A stretch of DNA of 64,000 bases from an uncultured bacterium (GCA_949292105.1 CASEYK010000028.1:5246-69245), one strand, 5' to 3'. Positions 4,345 through 32,132 are shown, counted from the stretch's first letter. Numbers and translations: made by a program. Notes: generated by a model from the sequence alone, not told the origin.

Positions 4345-4362
4345 AACGATAGGATTTAGAGT

Positions 4363-4656: not shown

Positions 4657-4683
4657 TTGTAAGGGAAAGGAGTAACAAATACG

Positions 4684-6189: not shown

Positions 6190-6195
6190 CGCTAT

Positions 6196-8049: not shown

Positions 8050-8612
8050 TTATCGCCTATATCATTCCAGACATAAAAGACACACTAGGCCCAAACAACC
8101 GATTATGTATATGGGTGAAAGGATGTAAAAAACATTGCAAAAACTGTTTATCACCAGAATTAAGAGCTTTTGCGGGAAATGATTTAGATGTTATAACTTT
8201 TCTCGAAGATAATGTTGATTTTTCGAAAGTGGAAGGAGTAAGCATATCAGGCGGAGAGCCATTTTTACAAAATAATGAACTATTAGATTTGGTTGTTTAT
8301 CTCGAAAGTAAAACAAAGGATATCTTAATCTATTCAGGATACAAATATGAAGAATTAGCAAAAGATCCAATCAACAGATTAATTTTCAAACACATCGCCT
8401 GTTTAATTGACGGAGAATATCTTTACGAACAAGATAAAAACGAAAAATTGAAAGGTTCACTAAATCAGCGCTTTATTTTCTTCCGAAAAGAGTTTGAAAA
8501 CTTATATTTATCTTTGAATAAAAAAGAGAGACAGCCAATTCCTATCATATTTGATAATGAGCATCTATATTTAGAAGTTGGACTACGAAAAAGGAGTACG
8601 AAGAATGTATAA
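8046..8612 (+). CDS. Radical SAM activase-like protein of the 4Fe-4S single-cluster NrdG/QueE/PflA-type.
   Basis: Sequence GPNNRLCIWVKGCKKHCKNCLSP carries a CxxxCxxC cluster motif after a GP..R motif, as in NrdG. VEGVSISGGEPFLQ is the GGEP SAM-binding motif. Size is 188 aa. The start overlaps the upstream stop (ATGA). Confidence 0.6.
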   Translation: MIIAYIIPDIKDTLGPNNRLCIWVKGCKKHCKNCLSPELRAFAGNDLDVITFLEDNVDFSKVEGVSISGGEPFLQNNELLDLVVYLESKTKDILIYSGYKYEELAKDPINRLIFKHIACLIDGEYLYEQDKNEKLKGSLNQRFIFFRKEFENLYLSLNKKERQPIPIIFDNEHLYLEVGLRKRSTKNV

Positions 8613-10680: not shown

Positions 10681-10692
10681 GAGGAACTGAAA

Positions 10693-12898: not shown

Positions 12899-13882
12899 AT
12901 GGCACAGAAACAAAAAAGAAGTTTAAAACCATCACAAATCGAAAAAAACATTGTTGTTATTACCTCCCTTCTAGGAGCGATATTTCTTTCTTTTGGAATT
13001 TATCTTGTCACCGAACGAAAAATAAACAATGAGTTAAAAGAGTTTGATGATTTCACTTCATCGACAAAATACATATATTCAGTCAAGGATTTGAATGGCA
13101 TCAAATCCAAAAACATGAATGATACTTATATTTTGATGGAAGACTTAACTATTGAAAATGGTCTTTCCACATATAGTGCCAATTCATCATTAACAGGTAC
13201 TTTCGATGGCAATGGCCACACCATAACTTTTAACTGTATGCCTAAAAACCCGTTATTTTATCGAATTGATAAAAATGGCACTGTTAAAAATCTCGGACTA
13301 AAATTTAATATTTCCTTTACGCCTGAAACCAAAAACTTTGCCGGCATTTGTGAGATTAATGAAGGGACAATTATGGACTCATTCGCTTATTATGAATCGC
13401 TCGGAGTTTTGGATAACAATTATATCGGCGGATTAGTTTGTTATAATCAAGGCATTATTGAAAGATGTGTCTCTTCTGTTTCTTTTCAAGAAAATTCAAA
13501 CTACATTTCGTCATATCGCATCGGCGGTATTGCTGGAGTTAATCGGGATGGTGGCAAAATAACAAAATCTTTTTCGGTGGTTTCTTCTTATTATCTCGAC
13601 AATTTAAATTTTGAAAACCATTCGGAAGAATTCATTCCTTACATCGGTTCAATTGTTGGCTATCAATCTAGCAACTCTACATTGTTGAATGTTTACACAA
13701 ATACTAACGATGCTCCTTTCAGCGATAGGAATGAAGTTATTCAGTACGACCTCACTTATTTATTGACGTCCGATTTTCTATTTTCAACTAAAACTGTCAA
13801 TTTTTCTTCAACTAAATGGCATATTGTTGAAGGAGAATTACCCCAGTTGAATGAACAAATTAAAAGCGAGGGTATTTTATGA
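12899..13882 (+). CDS. Membrane-anchored GLUG-motif protein.
   Basis: N-terminal TM helix. TGTFDGNGHTITFN box followed by IGGLVCYNQGIIERC and IGGIAGVNRDGGKITKSF, which match the GLUG repeat pattern. An AGGAGG RBS precedes it. Confidence 0.5.
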   Translation: MAQKQKRSLKPSQIEKNIVVITSLLGAIFLSFGIYLVTERKINNELKEFDDFTSSTKYIYSVKDLNGIKSKNMNDTYILMEDLTIENGLSTYSANSSLTGTFDGNGHTITFNCMPKNPLFYRIDKNGTVKNLGLKFNISFTPETKNFAGICEINEGTIMDSFAYYESLGVLDNNYIGGLVCYNQGIIERCVSSVSFQENSNYISSYRIGGIAGVNRDGGKITKSFSVVSSYYLDNLNFENHSEEFIPYIGSIVGYQSSNSTLLNVYTNTNDAPFSDRNEVIQYDLTYLLTSDFLFSTKTVNFSSTKWHIVEGELPQLNEQIKSEGIL

Positions 13883-16998: not shown

Positions 16999-17032
16999 AA
17001 CAATATAAATAAAATTTGGCGAGGTGTTTTCA

Positions 17033-20000
17033 ATGAAAAAGGTTTTTATCAGTTATGGTCGTGACAGTTTAAGTTTTTTTCCTACTCGCGTGAGCGAAGA
17101 TTTGATAAAAACGGAGCGGTTTGAGACCATTATCGATCAAAGGATGGAATGTGCTGTTAAGTTTGATGATTGGATTCAAGATAGAATTGATGAGAGCGAC
17201 CTCATTATCTTTTTCATGACAAAACATTCAACAAGGCGCCACGACAGCGTATGCTTGGATGAAATCGCATATGCTCGTAGTAAATCTATTCAAATCATTC
17301 CTGTTTTACTCGAAGAGTGCTCTCCGCCCCTTCTTGTGTCACGCATCAATTGGTTAGATGCTCGCGATTGTATAAATGTTGCTAATAAAACCATTATTGA
17401 AAGCCGATACAATGAAAGACTTAATCAAATAATAAAAGCTCTTGACGATGGTGGATTCGATGACGAACTCATTGGAAATGCTTTAAATTTGAAGAAAAAA
17501 CTTCAACCTTTTGACTTTTCTTTAATTTTGTCAGAAAGAAATGATTTTTTCACCGAAAGGCATGAATTTACTAAATTTTATAATGAATGGATTGAAAGTG
17601 ATAATTCGGTGCTTTGGATTGCCGCTAACGCTGGAAGTGGAAAATCGGTTTTATGTTCACATCTCGCCAACGAAGATGTAAGAGTAAAAGGTATTCACTT
17701 CTGTAAAAATTTTAGTACTGATACTGGTCTTGCTAGACGCATCATGACCCATTTAGCCTTCAATATTTTTACGCAGAACGAGCAGTACGGAAAGTCGCTA
17801 GAAGAGAATGTGGATTTTTCTGCATTTGTCAAAAATGATACAACAAAAGTTTTTTACGATTTATTTGTCAAATGTACAGCCCCTTTAGAGCCTAGCGAAC
17901 CATATATTTTGATTATTGATGGCTTAGATGAAGCTCCTTCGAGAGAAATTACTGAATTGAGTAAAGCCTTGTTTGAAAATCGAAATTTAATTCCAAAGTG
18001 GTTAAAATTTATTATTACTTCAAGGCCAGATTTGACTATCCTCCAATCCCTCTCTTTCCTTAGAAAATATGATTTGTTAAATAACAAAGACGATATATTG
18101 GCCTATATTCAACAAATATGTCTTGTCAAAAATTTAAATTTATCACAGCAAGATGTCGATCAAATCGTCGATTTGAGTCAAGGTAATTATCTCTATGTTA
18201 AAACTCTTTTTGATTTGAATGGCGGTTCCACAATTGATTTAGAAACATTGAAGAGTGGTATGTCTTCCATTTTTTCTATTAGTTTTTCGAAATTTTTTAG
18301 TGAAGAAGAATTTGTTCAATTGCCAAGACAATTGCTCCAAATTTTAGTTGCTGCGAAAGATTCGCTAGATGTCGAGACCATTTCTGAAATCATGGGTATC
18401 GGTCATTACGAATTAAACAATTTACTGAAAAAATTTGGGACATTACTCAATAGCAGCGATGCAAAAATCACTCTTTATCACAAGGCACTTGGCGATTGGC
18501 TTACCAGCCAAGATAATATCAATTACTTTGTTTCTTCAATTGAAGGTGATAAACAGATTTGCTTGTGGATTAAAAATAATCCATTTGGCTTCATGTTTAA
18601 TGACTATATTCGCAAATATGGTTTTGACCACCTCTTTAATACAGGCGATTTTGAGACTATCTTCTCTGCCTTAAAAAATACTAATCAGGAAACAGATGAT
18701 TCTCTTTGCTTGACGCTTGTACATAACGCTGTTCCTAATAAATATTCAGCGATTGCCAAGTTCATCTATGAAGGATTTAAAAATGATCCGAAAATTTTCC
18801 CAATTGCTAAAATAATAAGATATTTTGTCGAATATGGATGTTTTGCGTCCATGAGAAGCTTTTTTGCCAATTTTTTCATTCGCCAAAATAAAGAAATTGA
18901 ATGGATTATTCCTTATTCGGATTTAATCACCAACCGAATGCAGATTAAGATTGAAGAAGCGTATAAAACGCCTGAAGATTTGTTTAAGAATGCTCCAGAT
19001 GATGTTTATGCTGAATATTTTTATTATCGTGCCGAAGCATCGAGAGAACTCGGCAAATATAAAGAAGCCTTGAAACTTTATGAAAAAGCGGCGGAAACTT
19101 CTAGTAGTCCGGATCGATTTGCTCATTATATGTCGCTCATTAAAATTGCTGACATTTATTTTGTGTTTGGCGATAATCCAAAAGCGTTAGAAAAAGCCAA
19201 TAGTGTAGTGTTGGCTGATACCAATTTTGAAGGCAATTTTGCAAAAGAGCGAGTTCTTGGGCATATTTATAGAAGCATGGGCAATAGGCATGAAGCCATA
19301 CTGCATTACGAAAACGCATTAAACATCGCTAAAGACATGGGCAAAATGTACGCGATTGTTGAATCATACAATTCGCTTGCCACGGTTCTTGATGATGATA
19401 CCGCTGTTGAATATTTGTTAAAAGTTATTTCGCTCTGCAAAGCGCATGATTATAAATTAGAATTAGGAAAAGCTTATAGCGAACTAGGTAATATTTATCT
19501 TAAGAGAAGTGATATTAATAATGCCATCGAGTGCGGATTGAACGCTAAGCACAACCAAGAAACCGTCAAATATTTAGGCGGAATTTGTCAAGCGCGACGC
19601 CTTTTGATTCGATGTTATCTCCAGCTTCATGATTATCAAAAAGCCTTGCCCTTAGCTCTTTCAAATATCGAGGATATGCTCAATTCTCATTCGAGCCTAA
19701 AAACAGTGCTCAATGATATTCGCTTATATCATTTTTGCCAAAACGGGCTAGGCATATATGAACCTTTTGACGCTAATTTGTTTGCTCTTAAAGACAAAAT
19801 AACAGATGAATGGTTTTATCGTGAATTAGAAAAAAATACGATTGTCAACGCGGTTTTGAAAGAATTTAATTCGAGACCATCTTCTGATTATAAAATCGGA
19901 TACCACAATCAAAACCATACTGTTTCAGTCAATGGAGCCAAATATATTTTAAGAATTCCAGTGGAAGATTTTGATACAGTTGATATTCATGTATTTAATG

Positions 20001-20845
20001 AAAATGATGTGCTCAATTTCTTGGATGAAATTAACTTATCTGTCGATCATCCTCATTTCATTGGCAATGGCATTTTGAATCATACCATTGTGTCTGTTCA
20101 CTCCTTTATTGAAGGAAAACAGTTGCGAGCAACTATTTCCGATAATAAAGAATTAACTAATAATTTTGTGCTTCAATTCGCCCAAATTATGGCCACTTTC
20201 CATTCTTGTCGAACATGTCTTCCAAGCAATGATAACTTATATAGCACAACCAAATCGTTTTATGCCTATGATTATTCTTTTATTTCGAATCTTGTTAACA
20301 AGTGGTTTTTAAGATATCAAAATATGTACATTAAAATGGGATTTCCCACTGATATTAACCTCTTGCTAGCCAGTCATAAAGATGAAATTTTTGAGAACAT
20401 CACTTGTCTAAATCACTGCGATTTGCATCGTGGCAATGTGCTATTAAAAGACGATGGAAAATTTGCCATCATCGATTGGGAACTAACCCAATTTACTGAT
20501 CCTTTATACGACGTAGCCATTCATTTACACAAAATGTTTTATTCTGAAGAACAAGAAAAAATTTTCCTCGATGAATATTTTTCTCACTTTCAATACGATC
20601 GAGAATCTGCTACGCGACAGATTGAAAATTATCGAAGACTAGAAGAAGTTAAAAGTTGTGTTATCGATATAATTAGACTCGTACATGAATTTGGCACGAT
20701 GTCTAAAGAATCATATTTAAATGCTTGTGAAAAATACATCATGAAATTGAAAGTGCTAGAGAAGGAACAAGAGCAATATAAATCACCTTTTAAAAATAAA
20801 GAATCACTTTATCAATTCATCGAGAAAAAGTGGATTTTCTCTTAA
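17033..20845 (+). CDS. TIR - STAND (NACHT/NB-ARC-like) NTPase - TPR - APH/choline-kinase-like phosphotransferase fusion protein.
   Basis: - TIR: KKVFISYGRDS ... VCLDEIAYA gives the TIR FISY box and conserved Glu.
- NTPase: AANAGSGKSV is Walker A, ILIIDGLDEA is Walker B, and KFIITSRPD is the STAND TTR/sensor-1 motif.
- TPR: TPR-like helical repeats with ...YYRAEASRELGKYKEALKLYEKA...
- Kinase: HCDLHRGNVLL...AIIDWELTQFTDPLYDVA matches the APH Brenner HxDxxxxN and DWE motifs, and YILRIP gives the N-lobe Lys.
- Start: placed at ATG 17033, which follows GGCGAGGTG. Confidence 0.75.
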   Translation: MKKVFISYGRDSLSFFPTRVSEDLIKTERFETIIDQRMECAVKFDDWIQDRIDESDLIIFFMTKHSTRRHDSVCLDEIAYARSKSIQIIPVLLEECSPPLLVSRINWLDARDCINVANKTIIESRYNERLNQIIKALDDGGFDDELIGNALNLKKKLQPFDFSLILSERNDFFTERHEFTKFYNEWIESDNSVLWIAANAGSGKSVLCSHLANEDVRVKGIHFCKNFSTDTGLARRIMTHLAFNIFTQNEQYGKSLEENVDFSAFVKNDTTKVFYDLFVKCTAPLEPSEPYILIIDGLDEAPSREITELSKALFENRNLIPKWLKFIITSRPDLTILQSLSFLRKYDLLNNKDDILAYIQQICLVKNLNLSQQDVDQIVDLSQGNYLYVKTLFDLNGGSTIDLETLKSGMSSIFSISFSKFFSEEEFVQLPRQLLQILVAAKDSLDVETISEIMGIGHYELNNLLKKFGTLLNSSDAKITLYHKALGDWLTSQDNINYFVSSIEGDKQICLWIKNNPFGFMFNDYIRKYGFDHLFNTGDFETIFSALKNTNQETDDSLCLTLVHNAVPNKYSAIAKFIYEGFKNDPKIFPIAKIIRYFVEYGCFASMRSFFANFFIRQNKEIEWIIPYSDLITNRMQIKIEEAYKTPEDLFKNAPDDVYAEYFYYRAEASRELGKYKEALKLYEKAAETSSSPDRFAHYMSLIKIADIYFVFGDNPKALEKANSVVLADTNFEGNFAKERVLGHIYRSMGNRHEAILHYENALNIAKDMGKMYAIVESYNSLATVLDDDTAVEYLLKVISLCKAHDYKLELGKAYSELGNIYLKRSDINNAIECGLNAKHNQETVKYLGGICQARRLLIRCYLQLHDYQKALPLALSNIEDMLNSHSSLKTVLNDIRLYHFCQNGLGIYEPFDANLFALKDKITDEWFYRELEKNTIVNAVLKEFNSRPSSDYKIGYHNQNHTVSVNGAKYILRIPVEDFDTVDIHVFNENDVLNFLDEINLSVDHPHFIGNGILNHTIVSVHSFIEGKQLRATISDNKELTNNFVLQFAQIMATFHSCRTCLPSNDNLYSTTKSFYAYDYSFISNLVNKWFLRYQNMYIKMGFPTDINLLLASHKDEIFENITCLNHCDLHRGNVLLKDDGKFAIIDWELTQFTDPLYDVAIHLHKMFYSEEQEKIFLDEYFSHFQYDRESATRQIENYRRLEEVKSCVIDIIRLVHEFGTMSKESYLNACEKYIMKLKVLEKEQEQYKSPFKNKESLYQFIEKKWIFS

Positions 20846-20934: not shown

Positions 20935-21855
20935 ATGGACAGAAAAGTGTTCGAACATTATAGAGCATTTTATAATATGGTTCTATCCACGACTATATTA
21001 AGTAATAAATCCAACGAAGAATTTGAAAAAAACGCTTCAAATATCATCGATTTTATTGGCGAATCGTTTAAGTTAGATTCTTCTTTAGTGGCAGAATGCA
21101 AAAAAATCATCTTAGATGATTTAACAATTTTAAGTATTATGGCGGATTGTAACGCTCTTTATAGTACTCGCACTCTCGGCTCAAAAATAAATGATGCAGA
21201 TGTGCTGCTTGATATAAAGTGTGATGTTTTAACTAAACTCAATTCTCTTAGCAATGACGCTATGATGCAAAAAATGGGAGTGAATCAAAGCTGGTTTGAC
21301 TATCACTTTTTTAAATCTTATCAGCCTAATGTGCGATATAACAAAATCAATATCGCCAGCAGCGTTGGCAATTTAATTTGTACGAAACAAGTCGGCATCA
21401 TGAAAGCGCTCGGCATCGGCACCAAACAGGATTATAGCGAAGCGATTAAACGCTTTTTACAAGCTGCTCTTTGGGGCGATGTTGCAAGTTTAAGATATTT
21501 ATCGTATGTCTATACTTTGATTGGCAATCAAGAAAAAGCGTGTATTTTTAATGAAATAAGCGAGTTAAGCAGTCAATATTTGCGATCGGGTATTACCGAA
21601 TTATCCGATGAAGTGAAAAAACAATACCACGAACAAGCCATTTGTTACTATGCGATTATATCTTCAATTAGGCAAGACATCATTTTGCGATTTCAAGTTT
21701 TTAACATCGATTTTTCTTTTGTAGAAGTCATTTTAAAAGATGATATTAGTTTTAAAAAAGCGATGAAATATATCAACGAATACAAAAAAGAGCAGTGGAA
21801 AGAAGAAACAAATTCTTCGCTTGAAGCAGATTCTAGAATAGGTTTTATCCTATAG
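20935..21855 (+). CDS. Hypothetical protein (306 aa).
   Basis: ORF preceded by a GGAG RBS, lying between the STAND gene and the TraG-like ATPase. Confidence 0.45.
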   Translation: MDRKVFEHYRAFYNMVLSTTILSNKSNEEFEKNASNIIDFIGESFKLDSSLVAECKKIILDDLTILSIMADCNALYSTRTLGSKINDADVLLDIKCDVLTKLNSLSNDAMMQKMGVNQSWFDYHFFKSYQPNVRYNKINIASSVGNLICTKQVGIMKALGIGTKQDYSEAIKRFLQAALWGDVASLRYLSYVYTLIGNQEKACIFNEISELSSQYLRSGITELSDEVKKQYHEQAICYYAIISSIRQDIILRFQVFNIDFSFVEVILKDDISFKKAMKYINEYKKEQWKEETNSSLEADSRIGFIL

Positions 21856-21873
21856 AAACAGGAGAAATGAAAT

Positions 21874-23733
21874 ATGGCGAAAATGTCGTTGAGCGAAAAA
21901 ATTAAAAACGAATATCAAGAAAAATATTTAGAAGTCTCTAAAAAGATTACATATTTGGATTTGGATGAAACAGACAATGTTGAAGTGGTCATGTACAAAG
22001 ATTTGCCAAAGACTGTTGTCAAAGGTTTTCCTGTGGCTAGCGATTTCATTGATAAAGAGGGAAATATTTATTCAACAAAAAGCTTCTTGAAACTATCAGC
22101 AGAAAAGAAAAAAGAATGCGAACTGCGATATTTCTTTTTACCTAAAAATCATGAATTGTATGTTGGGGCGACGGGTAGTGGAAAGACGACGGGATGTGTT
22201 GTGCCGCAGTTAAGAGCCATCGCTTCTAAAAAAAATAAGTCCAGCCTTTTTATTACTGATCCAAAGGGTGAATTATTTGATAAAAATGCCGATTTTCTTC
22301 AAAAACAGGGCTATAAAACCTTCGTTTTAAATTTCAAAAACACTAGCCGTTCTGATCGCTGGAGTGTTTTTGAAGATTTGTATAGCATTAAAATTAAAAC
22401 TCTTTCGATTGGCAAAGGAATGAAATATAAGACTGGCATTCCATCTGCTTCGTTAGAATTGTATAGCGATATAAGCGATTTTAATTCGGAAAATTATATC
22501 GAATATGATGGCAAAGCCTTTGCCAACGGTAATGACTTTGATGAATATGTTCGGATTCAAAAAGATTTGATTGAAGCCGAACTGGATTCATCGCTAAATG
22601 AATTAGCTAATACAATGATTGTTGTTCAATCTCGAAATGATAAGACTTGGGAATATGGCGCAATTGATTTATTAAAGGGCATTATTCGCTGTATGCTTAC
22701 TGATTTAGTTAATCCCAAAAGTGGATTTACAAAAGACATGCTCAATTTGAACAATTTACAATTTTATTATACAACGCTCAAAAATACTCTCACTGATTCA
22801 GAATTTTCTGGAAGTAGTCAAAACGCTAGATTCAACAATCATCCACTTCTGGTCGATAAAGATGTTCGAACAAAAGCTTTATTGTCGGCCGCGTTGAATA
22901 ATTCCCCTAATACAATGAGAAATTATTGTGGTGTTTTTGATAATTCGATGACTGATTGGTTTCAAGCCCACATTTATGCATTGACCAATGGTAATAATAT
23001 TGATATCGATAACATTCCTGATGATCAGCCGTATGCCATTTTTCTCATTACACGCGATTATGAAAAAAATGACTATCGCATCGCTGGCATTTTTATCGAC
23101 TATGTTTATCGACATTTGATTATGCGCGCCGAGTGTAGCGAGCGCCCGCGCGAATTCCATTTTTTGCTCGATGAATTTGGGAATGTTCCAAAAATAAAAG
23201 ATTTTGAAAATAAAATTGCTACGGCTAGAAGCCGCAACATTTGGTTCCATCTTTATTTGCAATCATATTTTCAACTTGACGCTATTTACACAGCAGATGT
23301 CGCAACAATTATACGAGATAATTGTAGTTCACAAATCTTTTTAGGAGCTCAAAATCGAGCGACTAAAGAAGACTTTTCGAAACAATGTGGTATGCATTAT
23401 GTACCATCGTTTTCTAGCTATCTAAATAATGAATCACAGCCTAACTTGGTTGAGGTTCCTCTTGTTCCCGTCAGTTCGCTAGATTTAATCGAGCCGGGAG
23501 AAATATATACCAAAAGAACATATAAGCCTGTCATGGTTGCGCAGTTTATTCGAAGCTATGTCTGCGGTGAATGTGGTGCATACGAAGATCATCAAGACGT
23601 TGAAGGTTTAAAAACATGTGTGCCTCATGAGCACGGCGGATTTAATGGTCCTCAATACATTTGGCCCAAACTGCAAGAAATGCATACTAAGAAAAAGAAG
23701 AAAATTGATCTAGATGATATCTTAGGAGATTAA
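21874..23733 (+). CDS. TraG/VirD4-family (type IV coupling protein-like) ATPase. It is soluble, with no N-terminal TM helices, and has a C-terminal Cys-rich Zn-ribbon-like tail.
   Basis: Sequence VGATGSGKTTGCVVPQL is Walker A + the PnLL box. HFLLDEFGNV is Walker B. ARSRNIWFHLYLQSYFQLDAIY matches the T4CP RSrGi...QslsQL block. C-terminal CGECG...CVPHEHGG. Confidence 0.6.
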   Translation: MAKMSLSEKIKNEYQEKYLEVSKKITYLDLDETDNVEVVMYKDLPKTVVKGFPVASDFIDKEGNIYSTKSFLKLSAEKKKECELRYFFLPKNHELYVGATGSGKTTGCVVPQLRAIASKKNKSSLFITDPKGELFDKNADFLQKQGYKTFVLNFKNTSRSDRWSVFEDLYSIKIKTLSIGKGMKYKTGIPSASLELYSDISDFNSENYIEYDGKAFANGNDFDEYVRIQKDLIEAELDSSLNELANTMIVVQSRNDKTWEYGAIDLLKGIIRCMLTDLVNPKSGFTKDMLNLNNLQFYYTTLKNTLTDSEFSGSSQNARFNNHPLLVDKDVRTKALLSAALNNSPNTMRNYCGVFDNSMTDWFQAHIYALTNGNNIDIDNIPDDQPYAIFLITRDYEKNDYRIAGIFIDYVYRHLIMRAECSERPREFHFLLDEFGNVPKIKDFENKIATARSRNIWFHLYLQSYFQLDAIYTADVATIIRDNCSSQIFLGAQNRATKEDFSKQCGMHYVPSFSSYLNNESQPNLVEVPLVPVSSLDLIEPGEIYTKRTYKPVMVAQFIRSYVCGECGAYEDHQDVEGLKTCVPHEHGGFNGPQYIWPKLQEMHTKKKKKIDLDDILGD

Positions 23734-23738
23734 ACAAT

Positions 23739-25916
23739 ATGCTCGCGGTTGATATACTTATTACTCTTTGTCTCATTGTTTTACTTTTCTACGCGCTATA
23801 TGTAGTGACGAAATTGTGTGTTTTAAAACGCGGCGATAAGTTGTCTTATCTCAAAGGTTTTAAAAAAGGAAAGTTTGCTTTCATCTACTTTATTGCTATT
23901 TTTCTCTATTGGATTGGATATTATCAAATCAATAACAAATTAGATCAATCGTTTATAAGCGCGATTAATGACACCATTGATTTGGTTGTTTTAAAAATCA
24001 AGATATCAGGTATTTATTCATATATGGAAACCAATGCGTATTATGCCGCTTCCATGTATATTCTTTTTTGTCTTGTTGTCTTGAATGTCTTTTTATTTGC
24101 TTTTGCGCTGTTTGGACAAAGTATTGTTAATTTCTTTAAAAGAGTTTATTACACGCATGTTGCGAAAAAAATTTATGTTGTTATCGGATTTAATAAGAGC
24201 AATGAATCGGTGCTCAAATCGATTAAAAGTAAAAAATATAATGTTATTTTATTCGCAGAAGCTGGCAAGAACTATTTAGATTTCACATATATAAACAAAA
24301 TTTGCTATATCAAATATTTTGATAACACTGATTTTTATGATAAATTGTCCAAACTTTTTAAGAATTTTACAAATCGTAGCGTAGAAGTAATTATTAATAC
24401 TGGCAACGATGAAAAAAATATTATTCTCACCGAACAAATCAGCAACATCATTCTTGATGATAAGTTGACAAAATATACTTCTGATGTCGATTGTGGCCTT
24501 CGCGTCTATGTCTTTGGTGAGCCACAAAATGTTTCATCTTTTTCCCATTATGTTAAAAAAACAAATGGATGCGTTCATTATTTGAATAAATACAAAATTG
24601 TTGCGAATGATTTTATCGACAAATATCCTCTTACCCAATTTATGAATGATGATGAAATTGATTATAGTAGTGCAACGATTAAAGAAGATGTCGATCTCAA
24701 TGTTATTCTTATCGGATACGGGAAAACAAATCAGCAAATATTCCTCTCTTCCGTGGCCATCAATCAATTTATTACTTTCGACAGAAATCATCGTCTTGTC
24801 GATAAACCAGTTAATTATTTTATTTATGATAAAGAAATTTCTAATAACGAAAAAAACTTAAATCATGCTTTTTATCGCTTTAAAAGCGAATTGGATACAG
24901 ATCAAGATAAATATTTGCCACTCCCTCCTTTCCCTGCCAATGATAATTTCTTAAAACTAGACATTAATGATAATCATTTTTATGAAATGATTAAAAGCAA
25001 TATCCACCCGCAAGGTAGACGAAAAGCGTTTAATTACATCGTTATTGCTTTCGGTACCGATTTAGAAAATCTCGATTTAGCTGAGAAAATATGTTCTAAG
25101 TTAAAAGAGTGGGGATTATTCAATAAAACCAAAGTTTTTCTCAAAATTCGCAACGGCGAATTAGCCACACAAGTCGTCAATAAAGAATTTATATCGACGA
25201 GCGGATTCTATACTTTTGGCAATGAGAGCGAAGTTGTCTATGATATCGATAAAATTGTGACAGAAAAAATTGAATTGATGGCAATGGATCGACATCTTTC
25301 ATATAACATCAAAAGCAATATGAATTTAGAAACAGCCAAGCAAGTAATTGAAGAAGCGACGAAGAGTTGGTACGCGATGCATCAAATTCAAAGAGAAAGC
25401 AACATTTACGCGATTTTAAGTATCCGTTCCAAACTCCAGTTGCTCGGGTTTGATTATGCTCCAGTTAACAGTCCTCTTGGCGATGAAAGTGCAGCATATC
25501 AAAAGGCTTATGAAAAAGACGATCCGATTGTCTATGACGACACAAGAGAAGATGTCAAAGGTAAAAAAACCATTGTTTATACAAATGAACGAGTGAGCCA
25601 TAGCGTAAGAGAAAATCTAGCTATCTTGGAGCATCAAAGATGGAATGCATACATGATTTCCAAAGGAAATATTCCTTCAACTATTGAACAAATTAAAAAC
25701 AATGATTCAAAACGTCTAGATTTGAGAAGGCATGGCAATATTACTACTTTTGAAGGCTTAATTGAATTTAGAAAAATAATGGCCGAAGTCAAGCATCTCT
25801 CAGAAGAAGAAACAGATGTTATCCGTTATGACTATCAAATAATGGATGATTTAGTTTGGCTATTGCACAAAAACGGCTATAAGATTGTCAAAAAAGAGGA
25901 GAAAAAAGATGAGTGA
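23739..25916 (+). CDS. Polytopic membrane protein with two Rossmann/RCK-like cytoplasmic domains and a C-terminal RyR domain (paralog A).
   Basis: Four N-terminal hydrophobic helices. KIYVVIGFNKSNESVLKSI and VILIGYGKTNQQIF are GxGxxG-like. LEHQRWNAYMISKGNIP...RHGNITTFEGL matches the RyR HExW..GW.yg...H.c...eL pattern. It is a paralog of 26999-29383. Confidence 0.55.
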   Translation: MLAVDILITLCLIVLLFYALYVVTKLCVLKRGDKLSYLKGFKKGKFAFIYFIAIFLYWIGYYQINNKLDQSFISAINDTIDLVVLKIKISGIYSYMETNAYYAASMYILFCLVVLNVFLFAFALFGQSIVNFFKRVYYTHVAKKIYVVIGFNKSNESVLKSIKSKKYNVILFAEAGKNYLDFTYINKICYIKYFDNTDFYDKLSKLFKNFTNRSVEVIINTGNDEKNIILTEQISNIILDDKLTKYTSDVDCGLRVYVFGEPQNVSSFSHYVKKTNGCVHYLNKYKIVANDFIDKYPLTQFMNDDEIDYSSATIKEDVDLNVILIGYGKTNQQIFLSSVAINQFITFDRNHRLVDKPVNYFIYDKEISNNEKNLNHAFYRFKSELDTDQDKYLPLPPFPANDNFLKLDINDNHFYEMIKSNIHPQGRRKAFNYIVIAFGTDLENLDLAEKICSKLKEWGLFNKTKVFLKIRNGELATQVVNKEFISTSGFYTFGNESEVVYDIDKIVTEKIELMAMDRHLSYNIKSNMNLETAKQVIEEATKSWYAMHQIQRESNIYAILSIRSKLQLLGFDYAPVNSPLGDESAAYQKAYEKDDPIVYDDTREDVKGKKTIVYTNERVSHSVRENLAILEHQRWNAYMISKGNIPSTIEQIKNNDSKRLDLRRHGNITTFEGLIEFRKIMAEVKHLSEEETDVIRYDYQIMDDLVWLLHKNGYKIVKKEEKKDE

Positions 25917-26451
25917 AAATTATACGGATATAAAAGATAAATTGTTCAAGGATAGAACTATCGTCATCTGCGGTCCAATCGACAACGCTAAAGCGACATC
26001 AATTATTTTTTCTCTTTTAACTTTTGATTCGGAGAGCAATGACGAAATTCAATTATTCATTAGTTCTCTGGGTGGGGAATATCTCGACTCGCTTGCTATC
26101 TACGACACGATTAAAAGAATCAAATCGCCAATATCTGCAACTTGTATTGGATTTGCCAACGGATATGCTGCATTAATTTTGGCGTGCTGTAGTAAAGGGC
26201 ATCGATACGCTTTAAAACATAGTCAAATTAACTTTGAACAACCATATGGTGTAATTAATCAAGGCGTCAATCAAGAAACAGAAATACGCATTAGCGCCAA
26301 AGAAGCAGCAATCGAAAGAGAAGTGTTTGAAAAAATGCTTTCTGAACACACCGGTCAACCAGTCGAAAAAATTCATAAAGATTTAGAAGCCGGCATCACA
26401 TTGAATGTTGAAGAAGCGCTAACTTATGGCGTTATTGACAAAATCATTTAA
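25909..26451 (+). CDS. ClpP-family protein that is catalytically inactive (ClpR-like). It lacks the N-terminal axial loop and has a Lys/Arg-rich N-terminal extension.
   Basis: Collinear with ClpP (IYDTIKRIKSPISATCIGF...). The Ser position reads GFANGYAALIL (Ser to Gly), the His position reads NFEQP (His to Glu), and the Asp position reads LEAGITL. The start was set to the ATG at 25909, which follows a GAGGAG RBS. Confidence 0.7.
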   Translation: MSENYTDIKDKLFKDRTIVICGPIDNAKATSIIFSLLTFDSESNDEIQLFISSLGGEYLDSLAIYDTIKRIKSPISATCIGFANGYAALILACCSKGHRYALKHSQINFEQPYGVINQGVNQETEIRISAKEAAIEREVFEKMLSEHTGQPVEKIHKDLEAGITLNVEEALTYGVIDKII

Positions 26452-26466
26452 GTTGAGGAAATAGTT

Positions 26467-26988
26467 ATGGCCAAAGATATGAGAATTATCCTCATTAGTG
26501 GAGAAATTGATGAAAATGTTGCAATGGATGTCATTTTGCGTCTTTTGCTCTTAGACAAGCAATCCCACACTGAAGAAATTGTTATGTATATTAACTCGAG
26601 CGGCGGAAGTATTTTAAGCGGACTTGCCATATACGATGTCATTAATTACATTCAAGCTCCTGTCAGCACAGTATGCTTTGGCATGGCGGCATCGATGGGT
26701 GCCTTCTTATTATCTTGCGGTCAAAAGGGAAGAAGATTTGCTCTGGCGCATAGCCGCATTCTCATCCATCAACCATTGATTTATTCTTCTTCACCAGTTT
26801 TAAAAGCCCAATCATCTCTTGCTAGAATGGCTAAGCAAATTGAAAATAGCCGTCTTGAGTTAGAGAAGATTATGGCTAAAAATTTATCAAAAAGTTTTGA
26901 AGAGTTGCACCGCGACTGCGAGCGCGATAACTGGATGAGTGCTTTTGAAGCCAAAGAATATGGAATTATCGACAAAGTTTTAGAATAG
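26467..26988 (+). CDS. ClpP-family serine peptidase with an intact Ser-His-Asp triad and the roughly 22 N-terminal residues (axial gating loop) missing.
   Basis: Sequence GMAASMGAFLL (Ser), RILIHQPL (His), ERDNWMSAFEAKEYGIIDKV (Asp). It aligns end-to-end with canonical ClpP from position about 25 onward. A GAGG RBS lies 8 nt upstream. Confidence 0.75.
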   Translation: MAKDMRIILISGEIDENVAMDVILRLLLLDKQSHTEEIVMYINSSGGSILSGLAIYDVINYIQAPVSTVCFGMAASMGAFLLSCGQKGRRFALAHSRILIHQPLIYSSSPVLKAQSSLARMAKQIENSRLELEKIMAKNLSKSFEELHRDCERDNWMSAFEAKEYGIIDKVLE

Positions 26989-26998
26989 AGGTTTATTT

Positions 26999-29383
26999 AT
27001 GAATTGCATTTTTGATGTAGCGTTAAGCGGTGGTTGGCACTTTGCTATTGGAGTTGTTCTTGGCATCATTATTTTAGCTATTGCTTACATTATCTTAATG
27101 GTTGCTTACATCAAAACACGACAAAAATATTCAGGCAACAAATATTTGGTAGAAGTCTTGTATATCGTTGCTGTTCTCATCTTTAGTTTTGCTATTAAAT
27201 TAACAATTATCTCTATCGTGCTTCCAAAAAATATTGAAAGCGGCGTTACAGCCTTTTTCTATGCTTTGTATAACGGATTTGGAGGTTTGGTATTTGAAGG
27301 GTTGAGCGAGGATATTGGTATTATCTCAAGTGCTACTCTTCAATATTTATATACTGGCAGTTCTATTTTAGCTGCTATTATTTTTGTTAGCGTTTTAGCA
27401 ACACGTTTTAACTATGAGATATATAGTTACTTCTCGTTAGTTATTAATCGTTGCATTTTAAAAATACGTAAGAATAAAGATATTTATATCTTTAAATGTG
27501 TTACTAGCGATTCTCTTATATTGGCTAATTCAATTGTAGAAACATATCGTACAAAGGATGTTAAAAATAAAAAATGTTTAATTATCTTCACTGGTCAAAA
27601 TCTGCCTCCTTTTAATCGAAACGATGAGACGATGAAAGAGATTATGGCCAAAGGATACATTTATTGGCCTTATTCCTTATCACACGACAAAGAAAGAAAT
27701 AGATCAGTTTTATCCAAATTACATTTGTATGTTGATAATGAGCACTTTCAAAACAAAACTAATAAAACTTTTAGCAAAAACTATCCTTCAATTCATATTT
27801 TTGCTCTTGACAATAAAGACACAGTGGGAAAAGAGACAAACAACGCTGATGATATTTTTGAAGAGATTCAAATGATGGTTAAAGAATTTCATCGAAAGAA
27901 CAAATATTATCATGTTAATTTATATGTGCTGACGAACAACTATCTCAATTACATTTTCTACGACAAAAGGCTTGACGAAATATGCGGATTAAGACGCAGC
28001 GATAAAAATGGCGAATCCCAAACAATTCAAGAAAAGGCGATTCAAGCTGAAGCAGGAAATTTAAGACAGTATTTTTCCATTCATGTTCTCAATGAAGCAA
28101 ATTTAGTTTCTCGCGATTTTATCAATAAGAAAATCCAAGCATTTGAAAATGGTGGGATAGAAATGGTTGAAGAGCTTGACGGTGTAAGAGCTTATACAAA
28201 TACATATCGTGTATTAACGCTTGGTTTTGGCTATACCGGCCAGCAAGCAACTTTGCAAGCTTATATTAACTCAGCTAATCTTTCGACAAATTTTGAAATT
28301 GATGGATTTGAAGCAGACATTTTTGACACGAAAATGGATTCAATCAGCGGTATTTTTGCCCTTCAGCATCCTTTAATCGTTTGTTGCAATAACGATACCT
28401 CAGAAGAATTAGAAAAGAAAAAGCAGAGAATTATAAGTGAAAAAGCCAATTCTTATTTATCAAGAGGAATAAAAGATAATAAATGCTTTAAACTTCCTGT
28501 TTTCATTTTTCATAATGCCTCCTGTTTTAATCAAGATTTTGTTAAATTTTTGTACAAAGATGGCAACCATGTTTTAGCCAAAAAATACAATCTCATTATT
28601 ATTGCGCTCGGTGATGATGAGATAAATATTAGAGCTGCTAATGCGATTATTAATCGATTAAATCACGAAAGTGTTACAATAGAACAGCACAAGATTGTTG
28701 CTGTTAATATTATCAATCAAAAGAATATTTGCCGCCTCGATGAAGTAAAAAATAGTGATTATGTCCATGTCATCGCTTTTGGCTGCCGCGAAACAATTTA
28801 TTCATATGATTACATCATTAGAGAAGATGCATTTATGGAATATAATTTCCGCTATGGCGTTATCTTTGATGAAAAAAATCATATTTTAGGACCATCTAGT
28901 GGAGATAGTTTGTTAAATTCATTTGTCAAAAAGGTTATTTCAAATAAAAAACTATCTCTGAATAGTCAAGATTTGGATGATATTAATCAAACCCTCACTG
29001 ATAAATTTCGCACAAATGCAGATTATATCGTTGAGAAAAAATGGCAAATCAGTCTTTTCCAAAAACAGTCGAATGTTTTTGCCGCTTTATTCAAACCGAT
29101 AATGGCTTCTTTCATAAGGAGTTATCCTTCAGAAGATGAATTTAATAATAGTGCGGATTATCTTGTTGATAAATTTACATTCTTATCGTGCGTTGAACAT
29201 GAACGATGGTCAAGATTTTTGATAGCCAATGGTTGGGTTTATAGCCAAACAAGAATTGATTCAGCAAGAGAACACAACTGTTTGACAACTTTTTTTGAAC
29301 TTAATGCAACAGATAGGATAAATGATTTAATCAATGTCATTGTCGCTTTAAGTTTGGCAAAAGAAGGGATGAATAAAAAATGA
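26999..29383 (+). CDS. Polytopic membrane protein with Rossmann/RCK-like domains and a C-terminal RyR domain (paralog B).
   Basis: Five N-terminal hydrophobic helices. YRVLTLGFGYTGQQATL is GxGxxG-like. VEHERWSRFLIANGWVYSQ...REHNCLTTFFELNATDR is a clear RyR-domain signature. Confidence 0.55.
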   Translation: MNCIFDVALSGGWHFAIGVVLGIIILAIAYIILMVAYIKTRQKYSGNKYLVEVLYIVAVLIFSFAIKLTIISIVLPKNIESGVTAFFYALYNGFGGLVFEGLSEDIGIISSATLQYLYTGSSILAAIIFVSVLATRFNYEIYSYFSLVINRCILKIRKNKDIYIFKCVTSDSLILANSIVETYRTKDVKNKKCLIIFTGQNLPPFNRNDETMKEIMAKGYIYWPYSLSHDKERNRSVLSKLHLYVDNEHFQNKTNKTFSKNYPSIHIFALDNKDTVGKETNNADDIFEEIQMMVKEFHRKNKYYHVNLYVLTNNYLNYIFYDKRLDEICGLRRSDKNGESQTIQEKAIQAEAGNLRQYFSIHVLNEANLVSRDFINKKIQAFENGGIEMVEELDGVRAYTNTYRVLTLGFGYTGQQATLQAYINSANLSTNFEIDGFEADIFDTKMDSISGIFALQHPLIVCCNNDTSEELEKKKQRIISEKANSYLSRGIKDNKCFKLPVFIFHNASCFNQDFVKFLYKDGNHVLAKKYNLIIIALGDDEINIRAANAIINRLNHESVTIEQHKIVAVNIINQKNICRLDEVKNSDYVHVIAFGCRETIYSYDYIIREDAFMEYNFRYGVIFDEKNHILGPSSGDSLLNSFVKKVISNKKLSLNSQDLDDINQTLTDKFRTNADYIVEKKWQISLFQKQSNVFAALFKPIMASFIRSYPSEDEFNNSADYLVDKFTFLSCVEHERWSRFLIANGWVYSQTRIDSAREHNCLTTFFELNATDRINDLINVIVALSLAKEGMNKK

Positions 29384-30330
29384 GCGCTGAATTAAAAGTC
29401 TATTTTTTATTCGATGAAAATGAGAATTTGACTTTTGAAGAAATTCTAAAAAGTTTAAACAATTATTCAACTGAGGATATTTTTAATGCTATTAATATTT
29501 TGATTGGCAACAGATCATTAAAACTTGATGAAAATGGTTATTTTTCGCGAAATCAGCAAAACAAAGACGCCCAAAATAAATTTGTCCAAAAATTTTCTTC
29601 TCAAGGCATCACGATGTTTAAAAACAATTTATTTAGAACTGATTTGACCATTTTATCAGCTATTTATACTGGCGCGCCCATTGCCAAAAGCCTTCTTGAA
29701 AAAATAATCAAAGTTGATGCTAGGTCATTTCAATACTCTTTAAGTAAGTTGTGCAAATACGATTTAATAAAAGAATTCAATGGTCATTATTACTGTCGGC
29801 TTGATAAAAGTGTTATCTGTGATATCGCAAGTGCGTTCGATGAGCAAGTTGAAGGCGATAACGAAAATAATATTGATAGTATAAGTCCTCACATACAAAA
29901 ATTATTGAACTTGCTCAGCGATTTCCATAATGGAAAGAAAAAAATCAACCATGGTATCTTCAAAGCTGATATCGTTTTGTATTATAAAAACGGAGAAAAT
30001 ACTAGTCAAAGAGGTATTCGAGTTGATTCAAATGCGACAATTGCTGAAATAATTCGATATTATTTAATTGCTGAATGGGGAGAAAAAGAAACTTGTAATT
30101 TTTTTCATAAGTCGGATCTTGATACAAAACAGTTAGTAGAATCTAAAAATAATTATTTTTTAAGCGGTAGCGCATACTTTTTCGATGATGATAATGATGA
30201 ATTATTGGAACTGCATTGGGACGACAAGATTTTTGGTTCTAATGAACGGCTCGATTATCTTTTGCTACGAAATACCCATCCAATAATTCAACTCGATATT
30301 AAAGATATAGGAGAATGGACGGCAAAATGA
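29380..30330 (+). CDS. Hypothetical protein (316 aa).
   Basis: ORF whose start overlaps the upstream stop (ATGA). Confidence 0.4.
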   Translation: MSAELKVYFLFDENENLTFEEILKSLNNYSTEDIFNAINILIGNRSLKLDENGYFSRNQQNKDAQNKFVQKFSSQGITMFKNNLFRTDLTILSAIYTGAPIAKSLLEKIIKVDARSFQYSLSKLCKYDLIKEFNGHYYCRLDKSVICDIASAFDEQVEGDNENNIDSISPHIQKLLNLLSDFHNGKKKINHGIFKADIVLYYKNGENTSQRGIRVDSNATIAEIIRYYLIAEWGEKETCNFFHKSDLDTKQLVESKNNYFLSGSAYFFDDDNDELLELHWDDKIFGSNERLDYLLLRNTHPIIQLDIKDIGEWTAK

Positions 30331-30791
30331 AAAACATAAAAGAACAATTTAGACAATTTTTAAAAAGAAACAAACTTAATTTTGAAGAATCGGACGAAAA
30401 TTTTATTTTGCAGTGGACTTCAGAGGAAAACAGAGATCTTGATTCAACTTGCATGATTGAATTCGACTTAGATAGTAAAAGGATTTTTGTTCATTTTTTA
30501 TTTGCATTTACAATTGATGATTCTTTTTTACTTGAAACTGCGGTCGCTGTTTGCATGGTAAATAATTGCCTCTACGAAGGCAATTTTGAAATTATATTTG
30601 AAAATAATTCGGTGCTATTTAGAAATTGTTACCGATATAATGAGCAAGTTGATGACGATTTGTTTGAAACTGTTATATATAATGGTTTAAAAACATATGA
30701 TCCGTTTGTTTTAAAAATTAAAGAAGTATCTAACGGCGAATGCGGCATTAAAGAATTAGATGATTTTTTAAATGCTCCAAGCGAAGATTAG
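30315..30791 (+). CDS. Hypothetical protein (158 aa).
   Basis: ORF overlapping the upstream gene by 16 nt. It is translationally coupled. Confidence 0.4.
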   Translation: MDGKMKNIKEQFRQFLKRNKLNFEESDENFILQWTSEENRDLDSTCMIEFDLDSKRIFVHFLFAFTIDDSFLLETAVAVCMVNNCLYEGNFEIIFENNSVLFRNCYRYNEQVDDDLFETVIYNGLKTYDPFVLKIKEVSNGECGIKELDDFLNAPSED

Positions 30792-30794
30792 AAT

Positions 30795-32132
30795 ATGATT
30801 TCAAAGAGAAGTACTTGTTTTAAAAAAATCAATCCAAAACTTTTTTTGGATTATTCTTCTCTTTCTTCGAATAAATATTTATTTCCTTATAGTGGATCGT
30901 ATTTGCTAGCTAGGAAAATTTTCGACAATTTTGATAGATCTATAGATAGTGAAAAAATCCCTAGTATGCTCGAGAATATGCAAATAGCACTTAGCTTAAA
31001 TAATCCCTGCGCAATGTATAATACTGGCCTTCTTTTTGAACTAGGCATTGGCGTTCGCAAAGACGAAAAGATTGCTTTTGAACTATTCGAAGAAGCCAAA
31101 TTATTCAATAATTGTGATGCCGAATATGAAATAGCACTCAATTACTTTGATGGTACGCACTACGAGATAGATGAAAATAGAGGCATGGCTATTTTGTATA
31201 AACTATCGATTAGAGGACATCCAAACTCTTGTGGATTGTTGGGCGATTTGCTTTCTAAAAAGAATAATCCTAACAGCGTAGACATTGATGAGGTTTTTCA
31301 ACATTATTGCAATGCGGCTAGAGGCGGACTAGAAAAATACGCATATCGAGCTGCCTTCATATATTATTTTTTGCCTGCTGTTAATGCTGGATATGATCAG
31401 TCGATACTAATTGAACAACTTGCACCTAAGCTTTTTGAATTAGATGATAGTGAAGGATTATTTCTTAAAGGAGTATTTTCTCTTGGTGGCAAAAATTATC
31501 AAAAAGATATAGCGTTAGCTGAACAACTGTTGATTCAAAGTGCTGAAAAAGGTTGTGTTTACGCCCAAGTCTTTCTTGGTCAATTTTATCGAACTAATGA
31601 CTTTGACTTTCCAACCGATATCGAAAAATCGATCAAATATTTAAAAATGGCTGCAAAACAGAAAGATAATAGCGCAATTTTGAGCTTGGGAATTTATTAT
31701 TTAAAGTCAGACAATAACGATAAGAAAAAAGCATATGACTATTTTATGAGTTTCGAAGATGATTGTACCTTCTCCTATGAAAAATATTTTTCTTACAACT
31801 CAATATTCGGTGTTGGACACATCGATTATGTCGAGGAAGCTGTTTCATTTTACGAAAAAGAAGCAAACAACGGGAATGACGATGCAGCGTTTATTCTAGG
31901 CGCTATTTTTTATAATATGTGTATCTTCGATAAAGCATTCTCGTGTTTAAAAAGATTTAAAAAAAGCAACCATCCAAAAGGTTTGTTTTATTTGAGCTTA
32001 TGCTATTTTTATGGTTTAGGTATAAAAAAGAATTTATCTCCTGCAAAAAAATATTGTTCACAAGCCGTCATAGCTGGGAACAATTTTGCACAAGATTTGC
32101 TCAATATGATTGAAAATGAAATTAATGATTAA
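30795..32132 (+). CDS. Sel1/TPR-like repeat protein.
   Basis: Repeated A..lG..Y..G.GV.kD...A..w...AA-type units (AMYNTGLLFELGIGVRKDEKIAFELFEEAA, AQVFLGQFYRTNDF...SIKYLKMAA, and others). Confidence 0.55.
   Translation: MISKRSTCFKKINPKLFLDYSSLSSNKYLFPYSGSYLLARKIFDNFDRSIDSEKIPSMLENMQIALSLNNPCAMYNTGLLFELGIGVRKDEKIAFELFEEAKLFNNCDAEYEIALNYFDGTHYEIDENRGMAILYKLSIRGHPNSCGLLGDLLSKKNNPNSVDIDEVFQHYCNAARGGLEKYAYRAAFIYYFLPAVNAGYDQSILIEQLAPKLFELDDSEGLFLKGVFSLGGKNYQKDIALAEQLLIQSAEKGCVYAQVFLGQFYRTNDFDFPTDIEKSIKYLKMAAKQKDNSAILSLGIYYLKSDNNDKKKAYDYFMSFEDDCTFSYEKYFSYNSIFGVGHIDYVEEAVSFYEKEANNGNDDAAFILGAIFYNMCIFDKAFSCLKRFKKSNHPKGLFYLSLCYFYGLGIKKNLSPAKKYCSQAVIAGNNFAQDLLNMIENEIND

Follow-up and report, generated by a model that had tools for sequence, protein, structure and literature searches.

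Background

What holds a ClpP-type protease in check, and what feeds it, when its axial gate is missing by nature? The question is raised by two adjacent genes, here designated ClpP-A and ClpP-B, in a stretch of 64,000 nucleotides from an uncultured bacterium (GCA_949292105.1 CASEYK010000028.1:5246-69245); we refer to this whole stretch as the window and count positions from its first letter. The N-terminal loops of ClpP are regarded as indispensable, since they keep the protease harmless and couple it to ClpX, ClpA or ClpC. A preliminary description of the window, made from the sequence alone, had claimed that both proteins lack the gate formed by these loops, that one of them has also lost its catalytic residues and is a ClpR-like scaffold, and that the pair could be a suicide or abortive-infection effector.

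In this report, we compared the two proteins with solved ClpP structures, with protein family models and with their relatives in other genomes. Our main conclusion, which is well supported, is that they probably form a heteromeric, naturally ungated protease of the ClpP type, in which ClpP-B would be the catalytic subunit and ClpP-A the scaffold. The pair belongs to an accessory protease module not described before, for which a role in immunity is possible. Counts that concern the pair refer to 26 loci, namely 25 fetched non-redundant loci (designated by L and a number) and the window, while counts of neighbouring genes refer to 24 non-redundant loci.

A predicted catalytic subunit and a non-catalytic partner

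ClpP-A (25909-26451, + strand) and ClpP-B (26467-26988, + strand) encode proteins of 180 and 173 residues, respectively. The latter length had been given correctly, while the 181 residues first attributed to ClpP-A include the stop codon. Both proteins match the Pfam family CLP_protease (PF00574, cut-off 20.2 bits) far beyond chance, with 155.9 bits for ClpP-A (E = 1.4e-45, residues 3-180) and 200.1 bits for ClpP-B (E = 3.7e-59, residues 4-173). They stay below the cut-offs of the NCBIfam ClpP models, scoring respectively 153 and 203 bits against PRK00277 (cut-off 249), 151.1 and 197.5 bits against PRK12553 (cut-off 228, the lowest among the ClpP models), and 138 and 183 bits against TIGR00493 (cut-off 308.6). 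A cluster look-up of the window proteins returned no names.

The two sequences were aligned residue by residue to the solved ClpPs of Bacillus subtilis (3tt6) and Thermus thermophilus (6hwm), with catalytic positions numbered as in mature Escherichia coli ClpP. In ClpP-A, Ser97 is replaced by Gly (GFANG versus GMAAS), His122 by Glu (NFEQP versus MIHQP) and Asp171 by Gly, the adjoining Arg170 being changed to Ala (LEAGI versus TDRDN). The loss of the triad, claimed on simple reading of the sequence, thus persists after proper alignment. ClpP-B retains GMAASMG, IHQP and ERD, that is, Ser, His, Asp, the Arg sensor and the oxyanion Gly, again as first described.

The same division of residues runs through all 26 pairs. 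At the Ser position, ClpP-A orthologues carry Gly (13), Asn (10), Ser (2) or Asp (1); at the His position, where His is never found, they carry Glu (15), Ser (8), Asp (2) or Ala (1); and at the Asp position 24 of them have Gly, with Asp present once. All ClpP-B copies possess S97, H122, D171, R170 and G68, and all except one possess M98 (25/26). Judged by these residues, ClpP-A is a conserved pseudo-protease with the ClpP fold, a putatively non-catalytic partner of ClpP-B, which carries the Ser-His-Asp sites and is the predicted catalytic subunit. The handle is altered as well: a 3-4-residue insertion at its start is common to both proteins, the handle motif of ClpP-A (NQETEI in the window) keeps the canonical-like form NQ[EQ]TEI throughout the family, and the handle region of ClpP-B has diverged.

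Absence of the axial loop from both proteins

N-terminal deletion mutants of ClpP have an open pore and degrade unfolded proteins without an unfoldase. The N-terminal loops gate the axial pore and contact the unfoldase, and both the loops and the H-pockets have a role in gating (PMC8182300). The canonical loop comprises residues 1 to about 18, with the motif xxPxVxExxxxGER. Residue 3 of ClpP-A aligns with canonical residue 14 and the protein begins at a position corresponding to residue 13-14; about 12 N-terminal residues, corresponding to the beta-hairpin axial loop, are missing, and the short helix A is retained. Residue 4 of ClpP-B aligns with residues 26-28 and this protein starts at the equivalent of residue 23-28; about 22 N-terminal residues are missing, which removes the axial loop and the start of helix A. 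The canonical ClpP encoded at one of the other loci, L026, does possess the loop motif (IPYVVE...GER).

Taking the RII strand as reference, each ClpP-A of the 26 pairs starts about 12 residues before it and each ClpP-B 3-5 residues before it, in-frame stops lie close 5' of the starts, and no in-frame upstream start that would restore the loop was found in any pair. In the window, the start of ClpP-A shares 8 nucleotides with the end of the gene before it, F5, and the sole alternative start is a TTG within the end of that gene, which would add MSKKRRKK. ClpP-B begins 15 nucleotides past the ClpP-A stop, which sits in frame 5 codons 5' of the ClpP-B start, and is preceded at 7 nucleotides by a GAGGA ribosome-binding site. 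On the evidence of these starts and stops, the missing gate noted in the preliminary description is a real and conserved trait of the family, and no accident of annotation.

The two genes share a reading frame in the window, with TAA and five codons between them (26449-26469). Because only 14 of the 26 loci have this shared frame, we consider it a coincidence and programmed readthrough unlikely, and an A-B readthrough fusion was rejected.

Conservation and distribution of the pair

When 5.8 billion proteins were searched by word index, nine clusters of the ClpP-A type were returned, about 180 residues long and 49-93% identical, all of them without triad and without loop. ClpP-A is rare and patchy: it was found in 21 metagenome-assembled genomes (MAGs) among the 185,579 genomes scanned, one per GTDB species. 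The carriers are Clostridia and Christensenellaceae of human and animal guts, plus one member of the Bacillales, and the ClpP-A homologues found come from MAGs of Clostridia or Bacilli only.

By tblastn, ClpP-A is directly followed by ClpP-B at each of the 26 loci, with a gap of 0-21 nucleotides at 25 of them. Pairwise dN/dS values range from 0.07 to 0.17 for ClpP-A and from 0.04 to 0.13 for ClpP-B; both genes are under purifying selection. In a neighbor joining tree, the two families form separate clades whose internal topologies are largely congruent, ClpP-B being nearer than ClpP-A to canonical ClpP. By these sequence comparisons, ClpP-A and ClpP-B qualify as an obligate, co-evolving gene pair; they have been inherited together in about 30 lineages of uncultured gut bacteria.

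The MAG of locus L026 also contains, at a distance of 4.5 kb, canonical clpP, clpX and lon (6933-7418 and downstream), and the pair is therefore accessory there. In MAGs of the Christensenellaceae type, the module is found close either to clpP-clpX-lon (L026) or to lon-engB (L013, L015, L030); such proximity to the canonical protease genes might point to a local clpP duplication as the source of the pair, or to a site favoured for insertion. At L021, a PD-(D/E)XK nuclease is encoded downstream of the pair.

Genomic context

The pair lies within a nine-gene co-directional operon (20935-32132), in which successive genes overlap at their ends or are separated by a few bases and whose order is F1, F2, F5, ClpP-A, ClpP-B, F3, followed by genes for proteins of 316, 158 and 445 residues. 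A promoter and terminator scan gave a result no better than with shuffled sequence. The recurrent partners of the pair, absent from the preliminary description, are a VirD4-like soluble ATPase accompanied by a Sel1 protein (F2 and F1), and transmembrane proteins with RCK-like and RyR-like domains (F3 and F5).

F3 (26999-29383, + strand, 794 residues) starts with about four transmembrane helices, continues with two Rossmann domains of the RCK/KTN-like kind and ends in an RyR (R12)-like domain; it is found directly 3' of ClpP-B at 11 of the 24 loci. In its AlphaFold2 model (pLDDT 67, pTM 0.73), two domains are of the Rossmann type and the C-terminal domain is helical; among solved folds the model matches the TrkA gating ring 4j9v best (E = 4.6e-4) and Slo1/BK channels next. 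F5 (23739-25916, + strand, 725 residues) begins with three transmembrane helices, followed by Rossmann/RCK-like domains and, at the C-terminus, an RyR-like domain with the motif EHQRW...RRHG...D. It is a distant paralog of F3 (hhalign probability 95.9%, E = 6e-9 against the F3 profile) and lies just 5' of ClpP-A in four lineages, with orthologues at L004, L008, L011 and L014.

In the phage protein RyDEP, residues H75, W78, H100 and D117 contact cyclic ADP-ribose (2'/3'cADPR) (PMC13232231). The F3 family has invariant H734, W737, H759 and D776, which in the window protein stand at the RyDEP spacing (3, 25 and 42 residues), and all orthologues of F3 and F5 share these His-x-x-Trp, His and Asp residues. 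As these contact residues are kept, F3 and F5 are plausible sensors, at the membrane, of ADP-ribose (ADPR)-type signals or adenine nucleotides; from their domains, they are likely to act as ligand sensors or membrane anchors.

Precomputed matches to the RyR family (PF02026) include an F3 homologue (P0041) and a 94-residue protein at L041. At this locus, a gene for a 452-residue TIR_2 protein and genes resembling those of a type VII secretion system (FtsK_SpoIIIE, WXG100) are found further upstream, and the stand-alone 94-residue RyR protein (9684-9968), in which the second ligand His is replaced by Thr, is encoded directly 5' of Sel1, ATPase, A-type and B-type genes, in that order.

F1 (20935-21855, + strand, 306 residues) is a Sel1-like repeat protein that is always paired with the F2 ATPase; Sel1-type repeats are visible in its sequence, and a search returned about 96 representative clusters with repeat-type matches. 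F2 (21874-23733, + strand, 619 residues) is a soluble VirD4/TraG-like ATPase, with Pfam matches to T4SS-DNA_transf (103.9 bits), TraG-D_C (85.9 bits) and TrwB_AAD_bind, a Walker A motif GATGSGKT and a Walker B motif FLLDEF. No transmembrane helix was predicted in any of the 15 F2 orthologues scanned. The two genes adjoin the ClpP pair at 12 of the 24 loci, and also at L041 and L044, where the relatives are distant (F1 33-39% identical) and the link with ClpP genes persists. At L044 (4134-9508), a tandemly duplicated Sel1-ATPase pair lies opposite an F3-like protein and one truncated ClpP, which is B-like and has no A-type partner. Elsewhere, F1 and F2 form a lone two-gene unit among housekeeping genes (L036-38 and L042; for instance L036 10001-12740 and L042 1191-3913), or stand beside an AAA_2/Fer4_12 cluster (L039).

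The C-termini of the F2 family are acidic and usually end on an aromatic residue (DDDF, DDDY, DFDF, EDW, NFDF; 23550-23733 in the window), acidic tails being seen in the orthologues of L001, L007, L013, L015, L016, L030, L041 and L044. They recall the tails by which TraD and SSB dock on partners, and by analogy the adjoining Sel1/TPR-like protein is a plausible receptor. The TraD tail, likewise acidic and aromatic, binds TraM.

The gene that precedes the operon (17024-20845, + strand) ends 90 nucleotides 5' of it and encodes a 1273-residue protein with TIR (TIR_2, 48.6 bits), STAND NTPase (NPHP3_N), winged helix and TPR domains and a C-terminal APH-kinase. This TIR-STAND protein is a possible generator of the signal for the RyR domains. 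A related 926-residue TIR protein is encoded downstream of the pair at L012, and the TIR_2 protein of L041 is unrelated. At the other end of the operon, the three trailing genes (29380-32132, + strand; 316, 158 and 445 residues) have overlapping starts and stops, and a family match was obtained only for the last, a Sel1-repeat protein. Homologues of the 158- and 445-residue proteins directly follow the ClpP pair at L001, where the RCK-RyR proteins are absent and where restriction-modification and resolvase genes are found upstream.

Given that the operon and the upstream clusters occupy positions 1116-32132 and that the right half of the window carries housekeeping genes (SufS, SufB, MnmG), we take this region for a chromosomal accessory island. 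Its upstream cluster (2155-12882, + strand) encodes an AAA_2 ATPase, two unknown proteins, a 188-residue Fer4_12 protein resembling radical-SAM activases, a 700-residue protein that is 24% identical to a 'DO-GTPase2' protein, and a 729-residue protein with C-terminal transmembrane helices. The AAA_2 protein (2155-4344) is DolB-like (PADLOC DolB / PDC-M37B-like) or ClpB-D2-like, and has no IGF-type tripeptide. Since homologues of the AAA_2, Fer4_12 and 700-residue proteins adjoin the Sel1 protein and VirD4-like ATPase at L039 (465-9843) and L040, the cluster may be a further candidate conflict system. The island also encodes a 349-residue protein (1116-2165) with a weak match to the Mycoplasma MAG6410 transglutaminase-related lipoprotein family, and a 327-residue protein (12899-13882) with a GLUG motif and a signal-like N-terminus. 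Together with the best plasmid matches of the F2 ATPase, which are in Spiroplasma and Mycoplasmatota, these two proteins suggest that the host is a low-GC member of the Bacillota or resembles Mollicutes.

Proposed function and alternatives

We propose that ClpP-A and ClpP-B together make up an accessory protease that derives from ClpP and is self-compartmentalising, and that the two subunits would assemble into a mixed barrel, either A7B7 or with mixed rings. Such a barrel would be constitutively ungated and would lack the canonical N-loop contact to Clp unfoldases, so that access to it would have to be controlled by something else. The best candidates are the recurrent neighbours: the RCK-RyR proteins F3 and F5 could be the ligand sensors or membrane anchors that flank the protease, and the soluble VirD4-like ATPase, as a putative hexamer and with its Sel1 partner, could be a substrate-delivery motor or a sensor. 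The trigger may be an ADPR-type nucleotide signal. Because the pair belongs to one packed operon in an accessory island, right after the TIR-STAND gene, we read it as a proteolytic effector arm, and it is this gene context that suggests a role in immunity or conflict. We give nearly an even chance to the proposal that a mobile conflict module has the barrel as its proteolytic arm, which would be controlled or fed by the RCK-RyR proteins and/or the Sel1 protein and VirD4-like ATPase. The more specific idea that the barrel works without AAA+ unfoldases, and is fed or switched by a VirD4-type (FtsK/HerA-class) ATPase together with RCK-RyR proteins in the membrane as sensors of ADPR signals derived from TIR, we regard as unlikely.

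Several points weigh against a conflict module built on this barrel. The modules are separable, and their adjacency could reflect clustering in islands, since F1 and F2 also occur alone; conversely, at least seven loci have the pair without F1, F2 or F3, its neighbours there being glycoside hydrolases, leucine-rich repeat proteins or kinases. No more than three lineages have a TIR protein within 10 kb. PADLOC models match none of ClpP-A, ClpP-B, F3, F5 and the TIR-STAND protein, so known defence systems were rejected. The match of F3 to RCK rings, though consistent, is weak (TM-scores 0.24-0.39), and the RyR scores (PF02026) are 23.5 bits for the window F3 and 21.5 bits for that of L015, under the cut-off of 27.4. 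Co-assembly of ClpP-A and ClpP-B is something we infer from their sequences; the AlphaFold2 monomer model of ClpP-A, built from a 10-sequence alignment, is of low confidence (pLDDT 61), matches ClpP structures best but with poor TM-scores, and adds little beyond the alignment. To our knowledge, no interaction of ClpP with a VirD4-type ATPase has been described. Lastly, all sequences come from MAGs and metagenome contigs.

The pair could instead be an ordinary second Clp core, of the ClpP1P2 or ClpP3/ClpR kind, served by ClpX, ClpC or ClpE of the host and specialised for some housekeeping task, with neighbours that are coincidental. Heteromeric ClpP cores with an inactive subunit exist (ClpR), the pair is close to lon-engB or clpP-clpX-lon in Christensenellaceae, and in several genomes it stands alone among housekeeping genes, without F1, F2 or F3. 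The H-pocket can be read both ways. Its core is kept, Y62 being present in all 26 ClpP-B and aromatic in all ClpP-A, and L114 present in all copies of both; more broadly, the pocket positions (Y62, F112, L114, L48, L189) are conserved or conservatively replaced. Yet F49 and F82, which we take to be part of the hydrophobic pocket wall for IGF/LGF loops, are polar in both families, and position 23 of ClpP-B is its start Met. Against such a core, the loops for gating and unfoldase contact are gone from both subunits, the distribution is rare and patchy at the level of species, and canonical clpP-clpX exists alongside the pair at L026. A dedicated Clp ATPase nearby was also rejected: the recurring 802-residue AAA protein (L015) is Lon, and the AAA_2 protein lacks the tripeptide. 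A second core of this kind would be rather improbable.

We consider quite improbable that the pair is the cargo of a mobilisable or decayed conjugative island, in which F2 would be a true coupling protein that uses a type IV secretion system (T4SS) located elsewhere, and the pair would process or degrade transfer-related or host proteins while the island is transferred or establishes itself. F2 indeed has the domains of type IV coupling proteins, the annotated proteins closest to it are coupling proteins of plasmids (CD1115 family, Spiroplasma and Mycoplasmatota), and its acidic and aromatic tail is TraD-like. Some Gram-positive systems have soluble coupling proteins. Moreover, F1 and F2 stand beside the pair at half of the loci, the loci resemble insertions between housekeeping genes, and a resolvase gene lies upstream at L001. 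On the other hand, F2 scores 202 bits against the NCBIfam model conju_CD1115, under its cut-off of 250, and has no membrane anchor; F1 and F2 also occur as a lone unit, and the ClpP pair without F2. Pfam and NCBIfam searches of the upstream genes of the window gave no match to VirB4, relaxase or other T4SS parts, nor was a T4SS component found in the flanks of L015, which are housekeeping. The module of L015 lies between lon-engB and ruvC-ruvA-ruvB-queA-tgt, and the same lon-engB / ruvCAB-queA-tgt flanks are found at L013, L016, L019, L029 and L030 by gene order and blast clustering. For the lack of any other T4SS part among the upstream genes of the window, the housekeeping flanks of related loci and the missing anchor of F2, identity as an integrative and conjugative element was dropped.

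A prophage head-maturation protease pair of the ClpP type (S14) is scarcely credible and was rejected: phage prohead proteases of the ClpP class likewise have no axial loop, and both proteins match NCBIfam Clp_rel_HeadMat (NF045542) weakly, but these scores (40.1 bits for ClpP-A and 69.2 for ClpP-B, cut-off 120) compare with 153 and 203 bits for canonical ClpP models, no capsid, portal or terminase gene was seen at any locus, and the best phage tblastn matches, about 41% identical, are ordinary ClpP genes.

We retain the ungated barrel as the putative proteolytic arm of a conflict module. The suicide or abortive-infection effector of the preliminary description is a hypothesis with points on either side: the position of the window locus in an accessory island by the TIR-STAND gene and the conserved cADPR-contact residues speak for it, while the lack of a PADLOC match, the presence of TIR in three lineages and the genomes where the pair is alone among housekeeping genes speak against it.

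Significance

Stable loss of the loops in both subunits amounts to a natural experiment on how an open proteolytic chamber is controlled, and on what replaces the contact with the unfoldase. The link to the RyR/R12 domain would make a host-side RyR sensor testable, and likewise the links to the TIR-STAND protein and the orphan ATPase of the VirD4-like kind. If the proposal is true, a ClpP-type protease and an ATPase of the coupling protein type would join the parts list of conflict systems. If its more specific form is true, with the ATPase and the RCK-RyR sensors in place of AAA+ unfoldases, the module would be an immune effector of a new class, proteolytic and gated by a signal, and the first host-side use of RyR/R12 as a receptor of immune signals. 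The hosts, uncultured gut Bacillota and Christensenellaceae, are bacteria in which little is known.

Comparison with known systems

In the literature searched, nothing described a ClpP pair together with a coupling protein, an RyR domain, Thoeris or conflict systems. Among described systems that we know of or that this literature contains, none joins a dead subunit, loss of the loop from both subunits, a remodelled handle, and linkage to VirD4-like and RCK-RyR proteins; the wider module, beyond the pair itself, could be new in kind.

With the coupling proteins VirD4/TraG/TrwB and those of the CD1115 family, F2 shares the P-loop fold, the Walker motifs, the TraG-D_C region and the acidic C-terminal tail. 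It differs from them by its lack of an N-terminal anchor, by its sub-cut-off score, by the constant presence of a Sel1 partner, and in that no T4SS or relaxase was found nearby.

Thoeris resembles the locus by its TIR protein, which is encoded in the window and nearby at L012 and L041, and type II ThsA, with transmembrane helices and a ligand-binding domain, recalls F3 and F5. However, no Thoeris model matches, TIR is absent within 10 kb at most loci, and the TIR protein of the window is a large STAND-TPR-kinase fusion and not ThsB; nor is a ClpP-type protease a known component of Thoeris. The four 2'/3'cADPR-contact residues of RyDEP are also found in the flanking RyR/R12 membrane proteins, but RyDEP is a phage protein, whereas the RyR domain of F3 and F5 would be a host-side sensor.

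The ClpP1P2 proteases of Mycobacterium, Listeria, Chlamydia and Pseudomonas likewise consist of two ClpP paralogs from adjacent genes. They form a single two-ring protease in which labour is divided between rings and the unfoldase docks on one ring only. Unlike here, both of their subunits keep the triad and the N-terminal loops; in our pair, ClpP-A has lost Ser, His, Asp and Arg, and both proteins have lost the loop.

In ClpP3/ClpR of cyanobacteria and ClpP/ClpR of plastids, too, a catalytic and a non-catalytic paralog are encoded together, the inactive subunit is conserved and structural, and a mixed core is expected. The scaffold role first suggested for ClpP-A by likeness to ClpR stands in so far as it is a conserved pseudo-protease, adjacent to a catalytic paralog at all 26 loci; ClpR itself is only an analogy, ClpP-A forming a clade of its own in gut Bacillota (in a tree that contains no ClpR sequences). 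In contrast to these systems, both subunits here are without the axial loop and ClpP-B also without part of helix A, no dedicated ClpC or ClpX gene is nearby, and the pair is rare, accessory and found beside canonical clpP.

Finally, the pair can be seen as a natural counterpart to ClpP activated by acyldepsipeptides (ADEP). N-terminally truncated ClpP, a laboratory state in which the gate is lost, has an open pore and degrades unfolded proteins independently of an unfoldase. In ADEP-activated ClpP, also a laboratory state, the gate is displaced, with the same outcome (PMC8182300). Here, by contrast, the truncation is natural, is conserved under purifying selection across about 30 lineages, and occurs alongside a partner that is inactive and a handle that has been remodelled.

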